This document shows positions 18,965 through 26,600 of a stretch of 64,000 nucleotides of DNA, piece by piece. The stretch spans positions 8,814 through 72,813 of the forward strand of contig QHRW01000112.1 of assembly GCA_003220265.1 (NCBI GenBank), given 5' to 3'. The position numbers and the translations under genes were made by a program. This DNA is from Candidatus Rokuibacteriota bacterium (GTDB taxonomy: Bacteria > Methylomirabilota > Methylomirabilia > Rokubacteriales > CSP1-6). The notes below the pieces were generated by a model. It did no database searches. It had not been told where the DNA came from and saw nothing but the letters and a program-made list of their open reading frames with translations. Position 1 is the stretch's first letter, and each line of letters begins with the position of its first letter.

Positions 18965-19318
18965 ATGACGATCTCCAGCCGCTTCCTCTTCTCGGCCGCG
19001 ATGGACGTGACGCCGGATCGCGAGAAGCTCTTCCACGAGGTCTACGACACCGAGCACATCCCGCTGATCCTGCAGGTGCCGGGCGTCGTGTCGGCCACGC
19101 GCTTCGCCGTCCAGCCCTTCAGCATGGTCCTCGGCGGCGAGCGCAAGACGATGGACCCCCAGGGCGCCCCGCGCTTCCACGCGCTCTACGAGCTGGAGAG
19201 CCCGGACGTGCTGCTGAGCGAGGCGTTCGCCAAGGCAGTCGACCAGGGGCGCTGGCCCGGGCAGGTGCGCCCGCACACGAGCAACCGCCGCCATCTCATG
19301 CTGAAGCGGCTGCCATAG
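18965..19318 (+). CDS. EthD/DUF4286-like dimeric alpha-beta barrel protein
   Basis: YDTEHIPLILQVPGV-x2-A-x-RF, ALYELES. Confidence 0.78.
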   Translation: MTISSRFLFSAAMDVTPDREKLFHEVYDTEHIPLILQVPGVVSATRFAVQPFSMVLGGERKTMDPQGAPRFHALYELESPDVLLSEAFAKAVDQGRWPGQVRPHTSNRRHLMLKRLP

Positions 19319-19391
19319 CGACGGGGGCCAGGGCGCGTATAATCCGCGGTGCCCCGGACCCGGCAGTGGCCGGGGGCGAGAGGAGCCCGCC

Positions 19392-20186
19392 GTGCGAGCG
19401 AACAAGCTGAGGGAGATCTGGAAGAGGGGCGAGGCGGTCGTCAATGGCTGGCTGTCGATTCCCAGCGCGTTCTCGGCCGAGGTGATGTCGCATCAGGGCT
19501 TCGACTCGCTGACCATCGACATGCAGCACGGCGTCGTGGATTACCAGGTTGCGGTGACCATGCTGCAGGCGATCTCCACGACCGGTGTCGTGCCCCTGGC
19601 TCGCGTGCCGTGGAACGATCCGGCCCGGATCATGAAAATCCTGGACGCGGGCGCCTACGGGATCATCTGTCCGATGATCAACACCCGGAAGGAAGCCCAG
19701 GCGCTGGTGGCCGCCGCCCGCTACTATCCAGCCGGGTATCGCTCGTGGGGCCCGGTGCGCGCCTCCATCTATGCCGGCACCGACTACTCGCCGGCCAAGG
19801 CCAACGACGAGATCGTCGTCATGCCGATGATCGAGACGGCCGAGGCCGTCAAAAACATCGACGACATCCTGAGCGTCCCGGGCATCGACGCCGTCTACGT
19901 GGGGCCCGCCGATCTCTCGATCACGCTCGGCTGCACGCCGAAGCTCGACCAGACGGAGCAGCCGGTGGTGGAGGCGCAGCAGGTCATCGCGGCGGCGTGC
20001 AAGCGCCACAACGTGGCGGCCGGCATCCACTGCGGGGTCTCGTCCTACGCGCTCAAGATGATCGCGGGCGGCTACCAGTTCGTCACGCTGGCCAGCGAGT
20101 CGCGCATGATGGCCGCACGGGCGGCCGACGAAGTCGCCGCGGTCCGCAAGAGCGGAGTCTCGGCAGGGAAGCTGCCGGCTTATTAA
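19392..20186 (+). CDS. HpcH/HpaI aldolase family
   Basis: IDMQHG, ARVP, LDAGA, MIET, VGPADLS; TATAAT at 19338. Confidence 0.93.
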   Translation: MRANKLREIWKRGEAVVNGWLSIPSAFSAEVMSHQGFDSLTIDMQHGVVDYQVAVTMLQAISTTGVVPLARVPWNDPARIMKILDAGAYGIICPMINTRKEAQALVAAARYYPAGYRSWGPVRASIYAGTDYSPAKANDEIVVMPMIETAEAVKNIDDILSVPGIDAVYVGPADLSITLGCTPKLDQTEQPVVEAQQVIAAACKRHNVAAGIHCGVSSYALKMIAGGYQFVTLASESRMMAARAADEVAAVRKSGVSAGKLPAY

Positions 20187-20867
20187 GTGGGGGGCCCCAA
20201 CACCCCCCCGCCGCTCGGCAGCGCCCCGGCGGAGCCGGGGCGCGCCTCGACACGGTTCGACACGGCGCTGCGGGCGCGGACGCGCGCGCACCTGAACGGG
20301 TTCGCCCACCGGGCCCACGCGCCGGCGGAGCGGCGGCCGGCCGCGGTGGCGATCGTGCTGGTGCCGGACGAAGACGGGCGCGCGTGCTTCCTGCTCACGC
20401 GACGCGCGGCCACGCTGCGCGCGCACGCGCGGCAGTGGGCGCTGCCGGGCGGGCGGCTCGAGCCGGGCGAGAGTCCCGAGGCCGCCGCGCTGCGCGAGCT
20501 GCGCGAGGAACTGGGCGTGGTCCTGGACGGCGACACGGTCCTGGGCCGGCTCGACGATTATCCGACGCGCTCGGGCTTCGTCATCACCCCGGTCGTCGTG
20601 TGGGGCGAGAGCGCGGCGGAGCCGACGCTCAACGCCGACGAGGTGGCGCGCGTCTACCGGGTGCCGCTCGACGATCTCGATCGGCCGGAAGTGCCGATCC
20701 TGGTCACGATCCCGGAGAGCGAGCGGCCCGTGATCCAGATGCCGCTGCTGGGCACGCTGATCCACGCGCCGACCGCCGCGGTGCTCTACCAGCTCCGCGA
20801 GGTCGTGATGCACGGCCGCGCGACGCGTGTGGATCACTTCGAGCAGCCGGTGTGGGCGTGGCGGTAG
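20187..20867 (+). CDS. Nudix CoA pyrophosphatase (NudL/PCD1-like)
   Basis: LLTRR...H-x2-QWALPGG and Nudix box GES-x5-LRELREELG; N-terminus made of repeat copy D; start uncertain. Confidence 0.88.
20188..20251. repeat. REP-like element copy D
   Basis: Contains the exact reverse complement of CGCCCCGGCTCCGCCGGGGCG; starts 1 nt after TAA. Confidence 0.7.
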
Positions 20868-20907
20868 TGCGAGCCGAAGCGCCGCCGCGGCGCTGAGGCG
20901 AGCCTGT

Positions 20908-21014
20908 AAACAAGATTGGGAAGCATTCACCGGTCACGCGGGCCGATGCCAGCAAACGAAGAATGGGAAGCATTCACCGGCCACGCTGACCGGTGCCTGA
21001 ACGCGAGAATGGGA
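20908..21014 (+). repeat. ~46-bp tandem repeat (about 2.3 copies) with hairpins
   Basis: TGGGAAGCATTCACCGG(T/C)CACGC twice; third partial AGAATGGGA. Confidence 0.75.
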
Positions 21015-21022
21015 GAACAGTG

Positions 21023-21811
21023 ATGGGAGCGCTCGAGGGCCAGGTCGCGATCGTGACGGGCGCGGGCACCGGCATCGGCGAGGTGACGGCGAGCATGCTC
21101 GCCGCCGAGGGCGCGCAGGTGGTGATCTGCGGCCGGCGTCAGGCCCCGCTCGACGGCGTGGTGAAGACGATCGAGAAGGGCGGCGGCAAATGCGCGGCGC
21201 GCGCGGTGGATCTGGAAGATCCCGACGCGGCGGCGGCGTTCGTCACGTGGACGCTGGAGCGCTTCGGCCGCGTGGACGTGCTGGTCAACAACGCCGGCCA
21301 CTCGAGCCACGCGCGCTCCATCCGCTGGGTGGGCCGCAAGGAGTGGGACAGCGTGATGGCCGTCAACGTCCACGCGGTCTACGTGCTGACGCAGGCCGTG
21401 CTCCCCGGCATGATCCAGCGCAAGCGCGGCACGATCGTGACGGTCGGCTCGCTGGCCGCTCTGAAGGCCGGGCTCATCGGCGGCGCCCCGTACGGCGCGG
21501 CCAAGGCGGCCGTGCGCAACCTCATGCAGCACATCCACAACACGCTGCGCAACGAGGGCATCCGCGCGACGATCATCATGCCGGCCGAGGTGGACACGCC
21601 CATCCTCGACAAGCGCCCGCTGCCGCCGGACGCCGCCGCCCGCGCGACGATGATGATGCCGGAGGACGTGGCGCGCGCCATCATGCTGTGCGTGACGCTG
21701 CCGCCACGCACGGTGGTCGAGGAGATGGTGATCAGTCCGACGATCCTGCGCGACCAGAGCAAGGACCTGGCGGTGGCCGCCAAGGCGGGCGCCCCGGAAG
21801 GAGCGGTATGA
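21023..21811 (+). CDS. SDR oxidoreductase
   Basis: TGAGTGIG, NNAG, YGAAK. Confidence 0.93.
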   Translation: MGALEGQVAIVTGAGTGIGEVTASMLAAEGAQVVICGRRQAPLDGVVKTIEKGGGKCAARAVDLEDPDAAAAFVTWTLERFGRVDVLVNNAGHSSHARSIRWVGRKEWDSVMAVNVHAVYVLTQAVLPGMIQRKRGTIVTVGSLAALKAGLIGGAPYGAAKAAVRNLMQHIHNTLRNEGIRATIIMPAEVDTPILDKRPLPPDAAARATMMMPEDVARAIMLCVTLPPRTVVEEMVISPTILRDQSKDLAVAAKAGAPEGAV

Positions 21812-22872
21812 GCATGGAGGCCTTCACGATCATCGACGGCGACAAGGCCGCGGCGGTCAACGCGCGCCGCGACGGCGATCACGTGTGGCTCGATCCGGCC
21901 GGCGTGAAGGACGCGCTCGGCTGGGAGATCCACGATGGGCTCCTCTGCAACGACAGCATGTGCATCCCGCTCGACAACGAGGCGAGCCTCGTGCGCGACG
22001 GTGCCATCGGCCTGGCCGGGCTGGCGGCGGCCATGGACCGCGCGCTCGCCGTCGATCTCGACGAGCGCGCGGCCTTCCTCGGCGGCTCGGCGCGCGAGCG
22101 CAGCCAGGCGCTCGCCGCGCAGCAGGCGCCGGACTTCGCGCTGCCGGATCTCGCGGGGCGCACGCACACCCTCGGCGAGCACCGCGGCAAGAAGGTCCTG
22201 CTCGTCGCCTGGGCCTCCTGGTGAGGCTGCCGTCTCGACCTGCCGGTCTGGCAGGAGCTGTACGAGGAGCTGAAGGGGCGCGGCTTCACCGTCATCACCG
22301 TCGCCCTCGACAAGAGCGCCGACGACGCGCGGCCGTGGATCGAGAAGGCCCAGCCCGCGCACCCCTCGCTCGTCGACACGCGGCACGTGCTGGCCGATCT
22401 CTACAACGTCGTCAACGTGCCGACCATCTTCTGGATCGACGAGCGCGGGCGCATCGTGCGCCCGAACGACGTGGCCTTCGGCACCGACACCTTCAAGCAC
22501 ATCACGGGGCTCGAGTCCGCGCGGCACCTGACGGCGCTGCGCGCGTGGGTGCGCGGTGAGACGCCCGCGCTCAGCGCGGAGGACGTGAAGCGCCACCAGC
22601 CGCTGCCGACGGCGGCCGATCAGCAGGCGCGGGCGGAGTTCGGGTTGGGCCAGTGGCTGTGGGCCCAGGGCCGCACGGCGGCCGCGGAGCGCCACTTCGT
22701 GCGCGGCGGTGAGCTGGCGCCGCACGACTTCACCATCCGGCGCGGCACCATGCCGATGCGCAACATCGATCCGATGGGCCCGCAGTTCCGCGAAATGCTG
22801 CAGGCCTGGGTCGGCGGCGGTCAGCCGTACTACCGCCCGCTGCCCGACACTGCCGCCAAACAGACGTCATAA
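21808..22872 (+). CDS. Selenoprotein, TlpA/ResA-like thioredoxin fold (WAxxUGC motif), 354 aa, Sec at codon 139
   Basis: The frame continues through TGA 22222-22224: APDFALPDL...KKVLLVAWASW-U-GCRLDLPVWQELY...NVPTIFWIDERG; SECIS-like hairpin downstream. Confidence 0.88.
22225..22258 (+). other. Bacterial SECIS-like stem-loop
   Basis: CCTGCC-GGTCT-GGCAGG at 22239-22255; loop G lies 21 nt after the UGA; GGUCU apex resembles the E. coli fdhF SECIS. Confidence 0.75.
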
Positions 22873-22887
22873 AGGAGGATCCGACCG

Positions 22888-23880
22888 ATGGGCATGCTCG
22901 ATGGCAAGACGGCGCTGGTGACCGGCGCCGGGCGTGGAATCGGGCGCGGCATCGCGCTGGCGCTGGCGGCGGCCGGCGCCAAGGTGGTGGTGAACGACCT
23001 CGGCGCCACGCTGGACGGCGAGGGCGGCGACCGCAGCCCGGCCGACGTGGTGGTGCGCGAGATCAAGGCGGCCGGCGGGACGGCGCAGGCCAACTACGGC
23101 AACGTCGCCGACTTCGCGCAGGGCACCGAGATGGTCGAGCAGGTGGCCAACGCGTGGGGGCGCGTGGACATCGTCGTCCACGTGGCGGGCATCCTGCGCG
23201 ACCGCATGGTGTTCAACATGAGCGAGGCCGAGTGGGACGCCGTCGTCGCCGTCCACCTCAAGGGCGCCTTCAACGTGACGCGCGCCGCGTCGACCCGCAT
23301 GCGCGAGCAGCGGACCGGCCGCATCATCGCCATGTCGTCGGTGTCGGCGCTCGGCGCGCCCGGCCAGCCGAACTACGCGGCGGCCAAGAACGGGATCATC
23401 GGCCTCACGTGGTCCACCGCCAACGCCATGGCCAAGTACGGCGTCACCGCCAACGCGATCATGCCCAGCGGCGCCACGCGGATGATCGACTCCACGCCGC
23501 GCGGCCGCGAGATGTTCGAGACCACGGGCAAGTGGCCCAGCGAGCAGGCGATCGGCACCGAGCGCGATCCCGACAACGTCGCGCCGCTCGTCGTCTACCT
23601 GGCCAGCGACGCGGCCGCCTCCGTCAACGGCCAGGTCTTCCACTCCTTCGGCTACGGCTACACGCTGCTCGCGCAGCCGCAGGCCATCCGCCGCCTCGAA
23701 GGCAATCGCCGGCTCACGCCCGAGGAGCTGGCGAGGCTGTGGGGCGACACGATGGGCAAGGATCCCAAGCCGGCGATCGGCACCGCCTTCGGCCGCACGC
23801 TCAACGAGCGGCCGGCGGGGGAGTGGAAGGACATCGAGGCCGGCATCCGCGCCTGGAAGTGGGGCTACGGCGAGCCGTGA
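22888..23880 (+). CDS. SDR oxidoreductase (MFE-2/hydroxyacyl-CoA dehydrogenase-like)
   Basis: TGAGRGIG, VVVNDLG, AGILRD, NYAAAK; AAAGGAGG RBS. Confidence 0.93.
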   Translation: MGMLDGKTALVTGAGRGIGRGIALALAAAGAKVVVNDLGATLDGEGGDRSPADVVVREIKAAGGTAQANYGNVADFAQGTEMVEQVANAWGRVDIVVHVAGILRDRMVFNMSEAEWDAVVAVHLKGAFNVTRAASTRMREQRTGRIIAMSSVSALGAPGQPNYAAAKNGIIGLTWSTANAMAKYGVTANAIMPSGATRMIDSTPRGREMFETTGKWPSEQAIGTERDPDNVAPLVVYLASDAAASVNGQVFHSFGYGYTLLAQPQAIRRLEGNRRLTPEELARLWGDTMGKDPKPAIGTAFGRTLNERPAGEWKDIEAGIRAWKWGYGEP

Positions 23881-24368
23881 AGGGTGTGCTCCTGGTCTGC
23901 CACGCCAACACCTGCCGGAGCGTGATGGCGCACGCGCTCCTCGAGCGCATGCTCGCGGAGCGCGGGCTCGACGGGCAGGTGGTCGTGCGCTCGGCCGGGG
24001 TCTCGCCCTACGCGCGCGACGGCATGTACGCCTCGCTGGACGCGCGCCTGGTCCTCAAGGAGCTCGGCATCGTGCTGGCCGAGGACACCATCACCTCCAC
24101 CGATCTCAAGAGCCACCGCGAGCTGCTGGCCGCGGCCGACGTGGTGGTGACGATGACCGCCGAGCAGAAGCGGCTGGTGGCCGCCCTCGCCGACGGCCAC
24201 ACGCGTCCGACGCTGACGCTGCGCGAGCTGGCCGGCGAGAGCGGCGACATCGGCGACCCGGTCGGCCAGGGCGAGGACACCTACCGGGCCTGCCGCGACG
24301 AGATCGCCCGGTGCCTCGACAAGGGCTTCACCGGCCTGCTCAATCGGATCTCCGCGAACACGCCGTAG
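23877..24368 (+). CDS. Low-molecular-weight protein phosphatase family
   Basis: VCHANTCRS (CX5R) P-loop, SAG, DIGDP. Confidence 0.9.
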   Translation: MKGVLLVCHANTCRSVMAHALLERMLAERGLDGQVVVRSAGVSPYARDGMYASLDARLVLKELGIVLAEDTITSTDLKSHRELLAAADVVVTMTAEQKRLVAALADGHTRPTLTLRELAGESGDIGDPVGQGEDTYRACRDEIARCLDKGFTGLLNRISANTP

Positions 24369-25228
24369 TGGTCCGACGGCCATAGCGGCTGGCCGTCGTC
24401 GCGCCGTCCGGGCGTGTTGAGGACGACCCGGCTCGACACCACGCTGGCCTCCACCTCGCGGCCCGGCAGCAGCAGGACGTAGTCGATGCGGCGCCGCACG
24501 GTGGGGTCGGGCGCCCGCACGTCCTGGCGCGCGGTGGCGCCCAGCGCGTCAGGATTGGCCTCGCGAAACAGATCGACGAAGCCGTGGCCGAGCAACTCGC
24601 GCAGCGCCGGCGCGCTCTCGCCGGTGTTGAGGTCCCCCAGCAGGAGGATGGGCAGCGGGCCCGGCTGCGCGCTCACCAGCTCGGCCACGCGCTCGGTCTG
24701 GCAGTCATCGCGCGACGTGTGGGTGGAGTACACGGTGAGCAGGCCGGCAGGCGTGGCCACGTCCGCCCGCAGGGCCACGCGCGGATCGAGGCGGCGCACG
24801 CAGTGCGGCAGCTCGTAGACCTGGCTGCTCACGATCGGAAAGCGGCTGAGGATGGCCGGGCCCTCCACGAAGCCGAGGGCCCCCATGACGAGGCGGCCGA
24901 GCAACCGCCACGGGAACACCCGCTCGGTGGCGCGCGCGTGCACGTGGACGAAGCCCAGCGCCTCGGCCAGCCGCGCCGCCACGTCGCCGCGCCAGCGGCT
25001 GACGGGCGATTCCTGCAGCGCGACGACGTCGGGCTCCAGGACCCGGAGCTGCGCGACCATGAGCTCCAGCCGGCGCTCGAGGTCGTCGTCGTCGCCGGTC
25101 AGCCCGGACCAGGGGCCGCCGTGGAGCAGGTTGAAGGTGACCACGCGCAGCGGGCGGTCGTCCGCCGCCGTGGCGGCGGGCGCCGTCACGAGGCAGGAGA
25201 CCAGCAGCAGACACGTGAGCCGGAGCAA
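24281..25228 (-). CDS. Secreted endonuclease/exonuclease/phosphatase (EEP) family
   Basis: TFN, LQE, STH, GDLN, RIDY, SDH motifs; signal peptide after TTG 25228. Confidence 0.88.
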   Translation of the reverse strand: MLRLTCLLLVSCLVTAPAATAADDRPLRVVTFNLLHGGPWSGLTGDDDDLERRLELMVAQLRVLEPDVVALQESPVSRWRGDVAARLAEALGFVHVHARATERVFPWRLLGRLVMGALGFVEGPAILSRFPIVSSQVYELPHCVRRLDPRVALRADVATPAGLLTVYSTHTSRDDCQTERVAELVSAQPGPLPILLLGDLNTGESAPALRELLGHGFVDLFREANPDALGATARQDVRAPDPTVRRRIDYVLLLPGREVEASVVSSRVVLNTPGRRDDGQPLWPSDHYGVFAEIRLSRPVKPLSRHRAISSRQAR

Positions 25229-25541: not shown

Positions 25542-26600
25542 ATGGGGTTTCTTGATTTCGTCAAGAAGCAGTTCATCGACATCATCCAGTGGACCGAGGA
25601 GGGCGACGAGGTCCTCGCCTGGCGCTTCCCGATGCGCGACATGGAGATCCAGCAGGGCGCGCAGCTCACCGTGCGCGACACGCAGGCGGCGCTGTTCGTG
25701 CACCAGGGCAAGACCGCCGATCTCTTCGGGCCCGGCCAGCACACGATCAAGACCCAGAACGTCCCGATCCTCACCGACCTCGCCAACTGGGACAAGATGT
25801 TCGAGTCGCCCTTCAAGAGCGACGTCTACTTCTTCTCGCTCCGCCTGCGCCTGAACCAGAAGTGGGGCACCTCCAATCCGATCACGATCCGCGACCGCGA
25901 GTTCGGCGCCGTGCGCCTGCGCGCGTTCGGCATCTACACCTTCCGCATCGCGGCGCCGCAGACCTTCTACCAGAAGGTCTCGGGCACCCGCGACACCTAC
26001 GCGCTGGGCGACCTCGAGGGCCAGCTGCGCAACACGATCGTGGCCGTGCTCACCGACCACTTTGCCGAGAGCCAGGTGCCGTTCCTCGACATGGCGGCCA
26101 ACCAGGTGGAGCTCGGCGCTGCCGTCGCCGACCGCCTGCGGCCGATGTTCGCCGACCTCGGCCTCGCGCTCGAAGGCTTCCAGGTCCAGAACGTCTCGCT
26201 CCCGGACGAGCTGCAGAAGCGGCTCGACGAGCGCATCGGCATGGGCGTCGTGGGCGACCTGGGGCGCTACACGCAGTTCCAGACGGCGCAGTCGATCCCG
26301 GTGGCCGCCGCCAACGAGGGCGGCGTCGCCGGCGCGGGCGCGGGCCTCGGCGCCGGCGTCGCGATGGGCCAGGCCATGACGCAGGCGATGGGCCAGGCCG
26401 CGCGCGCCGGCGACGCGTCGCCGGCCGCGGGCGCCGCCGCGGCGACGGGCGCGTGCCGCGCCTGCGCCAAGCCCGTGCCGGCCGGCTCACGCTTCTGTCC
26501 CGCGTGCGGCGCCGCCCAGGCCGCAACCTGCCCCCGCTGCAACGCGCGCCTGGACAAGCCCAGCAAGTTCTGCCCGGAGTGCGGAGCGCCGCAGGCCTGA
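25542..26600 (+). CDS. SPFH (band-7, YdjI-like) protein with C-terminal double zinc ribbon
   Basis: FIDIIQW, LTVR-x2-Q, SPFKSDVYF, KWGT, RD-x-EFG-x-VRLRAFG; four CxxC pairs. Confidence 0.92.
   Translation: MGFLDFVKKQFIDIIQWTEEGDEVLAWRFPMRDMEIQQGAQLTVRDTQAALFVHQGKTADLFGPGQHTIKTQNVPILTDLANWDKMFESPFKSDVYFFSLRLRLNQKWGTSNPITIRDREFGAVRLRAFGIYTFRIAAPQTFYQKVSGTRDTYALGDLEGQLRNTIVAVLTDHFAESQVPFLDMAANQVELGAAVADRLRPMFADLGLALEGFQVQNVSLPDELQKRLDERIGMGVVGDLGRYTQFQTAQSIPVAAANEGGVAGAGAGLGAGVAMGQAMTQAMGQAARAGDASPAAGAAAATGACRACAKPVPAGSRFCPACGAAQAATCPRCNARLDKPSKFCPECGAPQA

Follow-up and report, generated by a model that had tools for sequence, protein, structure and literature searches.

Locus and reading frame

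The window analysed here, a 64,000-nucleotide (nt) stretch of contig QHRW01000112.1 from a Candidatus Rokuibacteriota bacterium (assembly GCA_003220265.1), contains at positions 21808-22872 a gene that lies between two short-chain dehydrogenase/reductase (SDR) genes and that, judged by comparison of sequences, very probably forms a single functional selenoprotein gene of the catalogued UGC-containing TlpA/Prx-like family, with selenocysteine (Sec, U) at codon 139. An earlier reading of the letters alone (the sequence-only reading) had joined two open reading frame (ORF) fragments into one frame broken only by TGA 22222, and translation of 21808-22872 bears this out: TGA 22222-22224 is the only in-frame interruption, and read-through gives 354 residues, with V-A-W-A-S-W-U-G-C-R-L-D-L-P-V-W-Q around U139. 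Within this one frame, third-position GC hardly changes across the TGA (0.96 on the 5' side, 0.95 on the 3' side), so the coding signal continues past the codon, and the earliest in-frame start codon beyond it is GTG 22387, 55 codons on and within the fold. TGA is the ordinary stop in 6 of 8 neighbouring genes, including the upstream SDR gene, and is therefore not a reassigned codon. The ATGA overlap with that SDR gene, also noticed earlier, is real. A Shine-Dalgarno-like sequence, GGAAGGAG, ends 4 nt upstream of ATG 21808 and 10 nt upstream of ATG 21814, and because of these two spacings the start is ambiguous and may be either codon.

Codon 139 among homologues

A six-frame search of 60 relatives and the source genome returned a match in 61 of 61 genomes (a tally that includes unpublished G036 and G022, used nowhere else), with a TGA in each full-length match, and S-W-U-G-C-R-x-D-L-P-V-W-Q was present in all 20 of the relatives' loci that were read. 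When one genome was scanned for each species, 579 candidate stretches were confirmed, and a wider sample was drawn as the top 80 loci by likeness to the Sec-form query; their records were labelled Rokubacteria/Methylomirabilota, Chloroflexota, Binatia, Myxococcota and other "delta", Actinomycetota, Thermodesulfobacteriota, and others. Aligning homologues at codon 139, a check proposed with the sequence-only reading, gave TGA or Cys codons at this position: the pooled loci comprised 111 gene copies, 110 of them distinct, with TGA in 102 and TGC/TGT in 8, in a sample biased by one of the two search patterns, which demanded Cys codons, and by the ranking of the top 80 against the Sec-form query.

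Thirteen full-length database proteins (339-351 residues, about 52-56% identical) read S-W-C-G-C-R. Public databases also hold more than 100 clusters of C-terminal fragments of ~200 residues each and, among the 107 fragments listed, the 15 commonest N-termini (38 fragments) fall just past the TGA, in keeping with the earlier expectation that standard annotation would split the gene.

A quick maximum-likelihood tree was computed, without inference of the root, from 109 rows; a truncated copy was left out, and the Sec/Cys column was masked. The 8 Cys forms fell into three clades nested among Sec forms, corresponding to at least three changes, a pattern matched by 0 of 500 label shuffles. If a Sec-containing paralog (described below) is placed as the outgroup, the pattern suggests that Sec was replaced by Cys repeatedly and that the insertion signal then decayed. 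The two larger Cys clades have mostly altered loops or broken stems, and L093 among the Cys forms still has six pairs.

One Cys form (TGC; L080, from a record labelled Deltaproteobacteria) stands alone beside a Sec form and keeps an intact hairpin with the loop GGUCU; Cys appears to have replaced Sec here recently, before the signal had time to decay.

The SECIS hairpin

The candidate selenocysteine insertion sequence (SECIS) starts 15 nt past the UGA, overlaps codons D144-E150 (D-L-P-V-W-Q-E), and folds at -11.1 kcal/mol (z = -2.4; 8 of 200 shuffles fold equally well). The sequence-only reading had placed its loop 21 nt downstream of the UGA, which agrees with the measured gap, since 20 nt intervene and the first loop base is the 21st. 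It had also ascribed bacterial SECIS geometry to the hairpin. The bacterial model, as given in section 5 of the review PMC13188914, has a loop of 3-9 nt, a stem of 4-16 bp, a G in the first two loop positions, a distance of 16-37 nt from the UGA, and a minimum free energy of at most -7.5 kcal/mol, and the hairpin falls within all of these limits, with the 5-nt loop GGUCU, 6 bp, 20 nt and -11.1 kcal/mol. Like elements of the Zhang & Gladyshev model, it is a stem-loop in the coding region just past the UGA, with a G in the first two loop positions and then G/U; unlike them, it is very short, has no family-wide conserved extended lower helix, and overlaps the conserved D-L-P-V-W-Q, with RNA and protein constraining each other. 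A second small helix around the UGA consists of the conserved W-U-G-C-R codons and was given no weight.

A stem of at least 5 contiguous pairs was present in 102 of 102 Sec forms, and fewer than 5 contiguous pairs remained in 4 of 8 Cys forms. Leu145 is CTG in 101 Sec forms and TTG in 1 (which keeps a G-U pair), against a background Leu usage in the same frames (4,220 codons) of 39.5% CTG and 46.7% CTC; CTC is found in 2 of the 8 Cys forms. For Gln149 all 102 Sec forms use CAG (background 79%) and 2 of 8 Cys forms use CAA, and Asp144 is GAC in 98 of 102 Sec forms and GAT in 5 of 8 Cys forms; all these counts come from related sequences and overstate independence. Every Sec form has a loop of the pattern N-G-(U/G)-N-U (GGUCU in 68, CGUGU in 26, CGGGU in 3, GGUGU in 2, AGUCU in 2, AGGUU in 1). 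The apical loop of Escherichia coli fdhF, the SECIS prototype, likewise reads GGUC. Residue 147 is Val in 98 Sec forms and Gly in 4, limited to these two because the G-U/G of the loop must be kept while Sec is used; of the 13 Cys-form proteins, 7 have Ala there, 2 Ser, 3 Val and 1 Gly, and of the 8 Cys forms with DNA, a set that overlaps the 13, 3 have Ala, 1 Ser and 4 Val. These patterns indicate that Sec forms preserve the hairpin by synonymous codon choice and that Cys forms let it decay, and such comparison shows the 17-nt hairpin as the element that would direct Sec insertion at U139.

Selenocysteine machinery

The source genome (6.0 Mb, 200 contigs, about 92% complete) was searched with profiles for selA, selB, selC and selD, the genes by which the sequence-only reading had suggested its prediction be checked, and the complete set is present. 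selA (587 bits) and selB (380 bits) adjoin on contig C45, tRNA-Sec (66.6 bits; anticodon TCA by ARAGORN) lies 1.3 kb from selA on the same contig, and selD (344.8 bits) lies at C87:57985-58938 (L001), all four matches exceeding their cut-offs. selD has its own in-frame TGA, within A-C-A-G-U-A-S-K and followed by an 8-bp hairpin, so that the selenophosphate synthetase would itself also be a selenoprotein.

Further thioredoxin-like UxxC genes were found at C57:109680-110036 (L026), C66:14059-14409 (L030) and C71:37097-37411 (L031), with the in-frame TGA motifs W-A-T-W-U-P-D-C, W-A-S-W-U-P-Y-C and Y-W-U-P-F-C, respectively. Used as an internal control, these three have hairpins at similar distances past the TGA, with loops AGUUG or GGUC. 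With still more TGA-containing thioredoxin-like matches, the genome looks selenoprotein-rich, which fits a Methylomirabilota metagenome-assembled genome predicted to carry 63 selenoprotein genes (PMC13188914).

Table 1. Positions in the window of the predicted selenoprotein gene, its parts, and the flanking genes.
Feature	Coordinates	Strand	Basis and remarks
Putative complete selenoprotein gene	21808-22872	+	354 codons, Sec codon included; TAA stop at 22870-22872
UGA codon, predicted to be read as selenocysteine (U139)	22222-22224	+	Conservation among homologues; alignment to DsbE/ResA
C141, putative resolving Cys of U-G-C	22228-22230	+	Invariant in 42 aligned sequences; opposite second Cys of CxxC
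Predicted SECIS hairpin, CCUGCC/GGUCU/GGCAGG	22239-22255	+	5' arm 22239-22244, loop 22245-22249, 3' arm 22250-22255
N-terminal alpha/beta domain, residues 1-100	21808-22107	+	Alignment; folded alone, pLDDT 91.8
TlpA/ResA/DsbE-type thioredoxin fold, residues about 98-254	22099-22569	+	Pfam, VIA, Foldseek; cis-Pro loop N203-V-P-T206
C-terminal helical domain, residues about 255-354	22570-22869	+	Helical prediction; H-D-F-T-I-R-R-G-x-M-P-x-R stretch
Upstream SDR gene	20993-21811	+	Pfam adh_short, 176 bits; TGA stop overlaps ATG 21808 (ATGA)
Downstream SDR gene, 330 aa	22888-23880	+	adh_short_C2, 147 bits; 16 nt past TAA; AAGGAGG precedes

Family placement

By far the best NCBIfam match of the 354-residue protein was NF041054, "ResA-like WAxxUGC motif-containing protein" (WAxxUGC_long), at 247.3 bits, with NCBIfam ResA second (76.6 bits versus a cut-off of 170). 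Model and protein are both 354 long, and only model positions 9-205 align well. The same holds for the clade, represented by Sec forms from Myxococcota, Actinomycetota, Chloroflexota and Binatia and by two Cys forms: the window's protein and five other members scored 247-270 bits, with the first ~205 positions aligned well. A paralog in the source genome (L024, contig C16:52546-53556, minus strand) shares the position of the TGA and the hairpin, here with the loop CGUGU, scores 300.7 bits over the full NF041054 model, and has no adjacent SDR gene; the window's protein is 44% identical to it over residues 28-312 (BLASTP). With the NF041054 family the window's protein shares W-A-x-x-U-G-C, with a TGA-encoded U, and the three-domain long form of ~350 residues, and its clade is best described as a predicted sister subfamily of the NF041054 long form, with the same architecture and a divergent C-terminal third. 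Because its scores lie below 300, the NCBI equivalog rule would not name this subfamily.

That WAxxUGC selenoproteins are known and uncharacterised, as the sequence-only reading had it, accords with the existence of NF041054 and with two papers, in which the family is listed as "Prx-like (UGC-containing)" (pfam00578, motif UGC, 46 Sec sequences) in the Global Ocean Sampling (GOS) selenoproteome (PMC2398784) and as "UGC-containing TlpA disulfide reductase" in a review (PMC13188914). That the GOS family and the NF041054 family are one is inferred from their descriptions: the motif and the Pfam family, and a cross-reference in the review. The UGC motif is absent from the main text of Peng et al., and the string "WAxxUGC" was not found in the literature searched. 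The UGC selenoprotein family has been catalogued since 2008, and the gene in the window is a new unannotated member of it.

With ResA, TlpA and DsbE(CcmG) (2f9s, 3gl3, 1jfu) the protein shares the thioredoxin fold with TlpA-type additions (Z 14.8-18.4), the W-A-S/T-W lead-in, and the cis-Pro loop. It differs from them in having U-G-C, one residue shorter than C-x-x-C, in having two extra domains, and, unlike these extracytoplasmic proteins, in lacking an export signal or membrane anchor. D144 is an acidic residue three positions past C141, a position occupied by Glu80 in ResA, whose E80Q variant structure was among the Foldseek matches. A membrane protein with a CGC site, MauE, is described in a preprint and offers an analogy only to the CXC-type site. 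Peroxiredoxins (AhpC/TSA, PrxQ/BCP) carry the motif PxxxTxxC/U (PMC13188914); the window's protein, unlike them, does not, and has L-L-V-A-W-A-S-W before U139.

Domains and predicted structure

The full protein was modelled with AlphaFold2 from a 42-sequence alignment, giving a mean predicted local distance difference test (pLDDT) score of 94.1 and a predicted template modelling (pTM) score of 0.91. The extra N-domain with C-x4-C that the sequence-only reading had described holds up, with G38, W39, C47 (21946-21948) and C52 (21961-21963) invariant in the 42 aligned sequences, which come from several phyla; in the predicted structure C47 and C52 belong to strands E45-47 and E52-54, which lie side by side in a hairpin. 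Neither Foldseek (best E 0.24) nor VIA gave this domain a clear match among solved structures; the best VIA match, 5h3k_A, had Z 6.1 and a root-mean-square deviation of 4.3 over 91 residues and all others had Z of at most 4.6, too weak for a fold name. In the ESM Atlas, the only matches to its first 100 codons (translation table 11) were clusters lacking annotation and some short AhpC-TSA fragments, the latter probably truncated copies of the UGC family.

For the thioredoxin domain, the best Pfam match was AhpC-TSA (PF00578; 70.1 bits versus a gathering score of 26, residues 105-217), followed by Redoxin at 53.1 bits, and a GSHPx match of 21.9 bits fell below its cut-off; because the PF00578 model also spans TlpA-like proteins, the match to it does not decide the question of a peroxiredoxin. 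VIA gave Z of 18.4 to 3gl3_A, 17.2 to 2f9s_A and 14.8 to 1jfu_A, and Foldseek E of about 1e-11, with the predicted structure as query. The earlier placement of the TGA at the attacking Cys of the TlpA motif was reproduced by phmmer alignment to solved DsbE/ResA chains, in which U139 and C141 stand opposite the two Cys of W-C-G-P-C with a one-residue gap at the Pro, and with this Pro missing the active site would be a shortened, CXC-type one. Invariant or nearly so in the 42 sequences are N203-V-P-T206, R142, D144, W148, R218-P219, and the C-terminal H-D-F-T-I-R-R-G-x-M-P-x-R.

As to the TPR-like C-terminus of the sequence-only reading, the helical character is supported by prediction, and the assignment to TPR was not borne out by Pfam, where the match is below threshold (TPR_12, 17.8 versus 30.1 bits). 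The absence of a signal peptide, also claimed there, agrees with the hydropathy profile, in which even the most hydrophobic 19-residue stretch (Kyte-Doolittle mean 1.37) falls short of what a signal peptide or membrane helix would need, and the N-terminus belongs to a confidently folded domain in the model. The protein is predicted to be cytoplasmic.

Gene neighbourhood and transcripts

The order SDR, UGC gene, SDR is kept in Rokubacteria orthologues, and identity within the genus is about 81-90% for the upstream SDR and about 81-92% for the downstream SDR. The downstream SDR matched NCBIfam PRK07791 at 262.7 bits, below its cut-off. To find neighbours across the wider set of loci, genes were called crudely, filtered by GC at codon positions, and clustered all against all. 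In 38 of 99 loci an SDR gene lay on the same strand within 250 nt, and by lineage label an adjacent SDR was found in 21 of 29 Rokubacteria, 11 of 16 Chloroflexota, 2 of 23 Myxococcota/delta, 1 of 8 Binatia and 0 of 7 Actinomycetota loci, so that SDR genes recur as neighbours in two phyla. Recurrent neighbour families were SDR (48 loci), alpha/beta hydrolase (18) and cytochrome P450 (9); families of this kind are abundant in such genomes, and the link to the UGC gene is suggestive at most.

Several Chloroflexota loci, mostly from Tepidiformaceae, carry two tandem Sec copies about 1.1 kb apart, followed by a same-strand SDR (L075, L081, L083, L085, L087, L088, L092, L101, L102, L105, L107). The tandem copies form separate clades in the tree, and the duplication would thus be old.

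No promoters or terminators were found within 20800-24400, which is compatible with an operon and is not evidence for one. Parts of the stretch occur in soil and rhizosphere metagenomes from 14 studies. Reads with TGC or TGG in place of the TGA, named with the sequence-only reading as evidence that would speak against it, were looked for in four runs, and no alternative letter was seen at 22222-22224; DNA contigs reaching the TGA extend fewer than 31 letters past it, and none bridges it. One contig from an RNA library (X20; 21686-21899, 1 mismatch) spans the junction of the SDR and UGC genes and lends weak support to transcription.

Two other ORFs of the window were noted. Upstream of the SDR gene, a 544-codon ORF at 19296-20930 (minus strand) had no Pfam match at 1e-5 and no NCBIfam match at 1e-10 and is conserved in 21 related Rokubacteria loci (tblastn E down to 1e-98); it is predicted to encode a lineage-specific protein. 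At 25542-26600 (plus strand) an SPFH/Band-7 domain (Band_7_1, 247.8 bits) is fused to C-terminal zinc-ribbon motifs (DZR and Zn_Ribbon matches), in a protein that has no bearing on the UGC gene.

Proposed mechanism and alternative interpretations

As we picture it, SelB with Sec-tRNA(Sec) would recognise the hairpin past the UGA, with its N-G-U/G-N-U loop (here GGUCU), and insert Sec at codon 139, giving a cytoplasmic three-domain protein of 354 residues. The selenolate of U139, at the N-terminus of helix 1, would attack a disulfide or possibly a hydroperoxide, C141 would resolve the adduct to an intramolecular selenenylsulfide (an 11-membered ring), and thioredoxin or the cysteine pair of the N-domain may then reduce this bond again. 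By analogy with related enzymes, a role as disulfide or selenenylsulfide reductase or isomerase has about an even chance of being correct; the cis-Pro loop and the ResA-like acidic D144 favour thiol-disulfide exchange with a peptide or protein substrate, and peroxide reduction is disfavoured because the peroxiredoxin motif and Arg are missing.

Several points count against the selenoprotein assignment and its mechanism as set out here. Of the six stem pairs, three follow from the conserved D-L-P-x-W-Q itself (CC of Pro opposite GG of Trp; U of Leu opposite A of Gln), which leaves three free positions, in related sequences, as the basis of the RNA evidence. RNAalifold, run on 93 sequences, found just 2 G-U changes, both one-sided, and 0 compensatory double changes; covariation is missing because the stem is nearly invariant, and codon choice was used instead. 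A scan of 22100-22400 against Rfam at E of at most 10 returned no SECIS family, only a chance lncRNA match, and the NF041054 score of the window's protein does not reach the curated equivalog cut-off (247.3 versus 300). The RNA contigs are short and mostly 90-95% alike, and thus come from relatives, with DNA carry-over possible. The catalytic mechanism, electron donor and substrate are all taken from family knowledge.

That the TGA is instead a true stop, whether in a pseudogene or between two genes, or else a sequencing error or a codon reassigned genome-wide, is very hard to credit. Gene callers do treat it as a stop, and the database entries are the ~200-residue C-terminal fragments described above; against this, TGA occupies one codon in 102 distinct copies from independent assemblies and several phyla, with both flanks conserved, no variant was seen at 22222-22224 in two DNA runs, and restarting at GTG 22387 would begin inside the fold, while reassignment conflicts with the use of TGA as terminator by most neighbouring genes. 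A different alternative keeps the selenoprotein and changes the chemistry: U139 would reduce a hydroperoxide, perhaps that of a lipid in view of the SDR genes alongside, to give a selenenic acid, with which C141 would condense to a selenenylsulfide, as modelled on atypical 2-Cys peroxiredoxins and enzymes of the glutathione peroxidase (GPx) type. GPx active sites read A-S-x-U-G, near the A-S-W-U-G found here, and the AhpC-TSA match, the weak sub-cut-off GSHPx match, the predicted cytoplasmic location, and the recurrence of oxidoreductase and hydrolase neighbours (SDR, alpha/beta hydrolase, P450) point the same way, as does the filing of the family under "Prx-like (UGC-containing)" in the GOS paper (PMC2398784). 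We nevertheless regard peroxidase chemistry as possible but on the whole unlikely, since PxxxTxxC/U is absent before U139 and ResA, DsbE and TlpA, rather than Prx, head the matches to structures and to NCBIfam. The invariant cis-Pro loop N-V-P-T, moreover, is typical of thiol-disulfide oxidoreductases and sits where peroxiredoxins have the catalytic Arg.

More speculatively, C47, C52, U139 and C141 might form one site, for binding of a metal or metalloid or for a two-step redox relay, in a carrier or sensor. All four residues are invariant in the 42 sequences from several phyla, the domain arrangement is confidently modelled, C47 and C52 lie on neighbouring hairpin strands, and no solved structure clearly corresponds to the N-domain; but no metal-binding family was matched in Pfam or NCBIfam, and thioredoxin-fold U/CxxC proteins usually work by thiol-disulfide exchange, which makes a joint site improbable. 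Its fuller version, a four-chalcogen centre (relay or metal/metalloid) serving the co-transcribed SDRs on a lipid-like or hydroperoxide substrate, is a long shot; if true, it would amount to a new cytoplasmic selenium-dependent pathway, widespread in soil bacteria.

Significance

The practical value of assigning a selenoprotein to this locus is a correction of annotation, since gene callers cut the gene at the UGA and have left more than 100 clusters of truncated fragments in the databases. What is added to the record is modest: a subfamily split relative to NF041054, an invariant C-x4-C in an N-domain without a clear solved match, a recurrent SDR neighbour, and the imprint of the SECIS on residue 147 with its decay after replacement. 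Soil and groundwater lineages carry the family widely (579 candidate stretches in species-representative genomes), and it is a reasonable target for the first enzymology of a U-G-C (CXC-type) thioredoxin fold. The RNA signal here appears to shape the protein: a SECIS inside a conserved peptide would hold residue 147 to Val or Gly for as long as Sec is used, and lineages that have switched to Cys drift to Ala or Ser at this residue and lose the stem.

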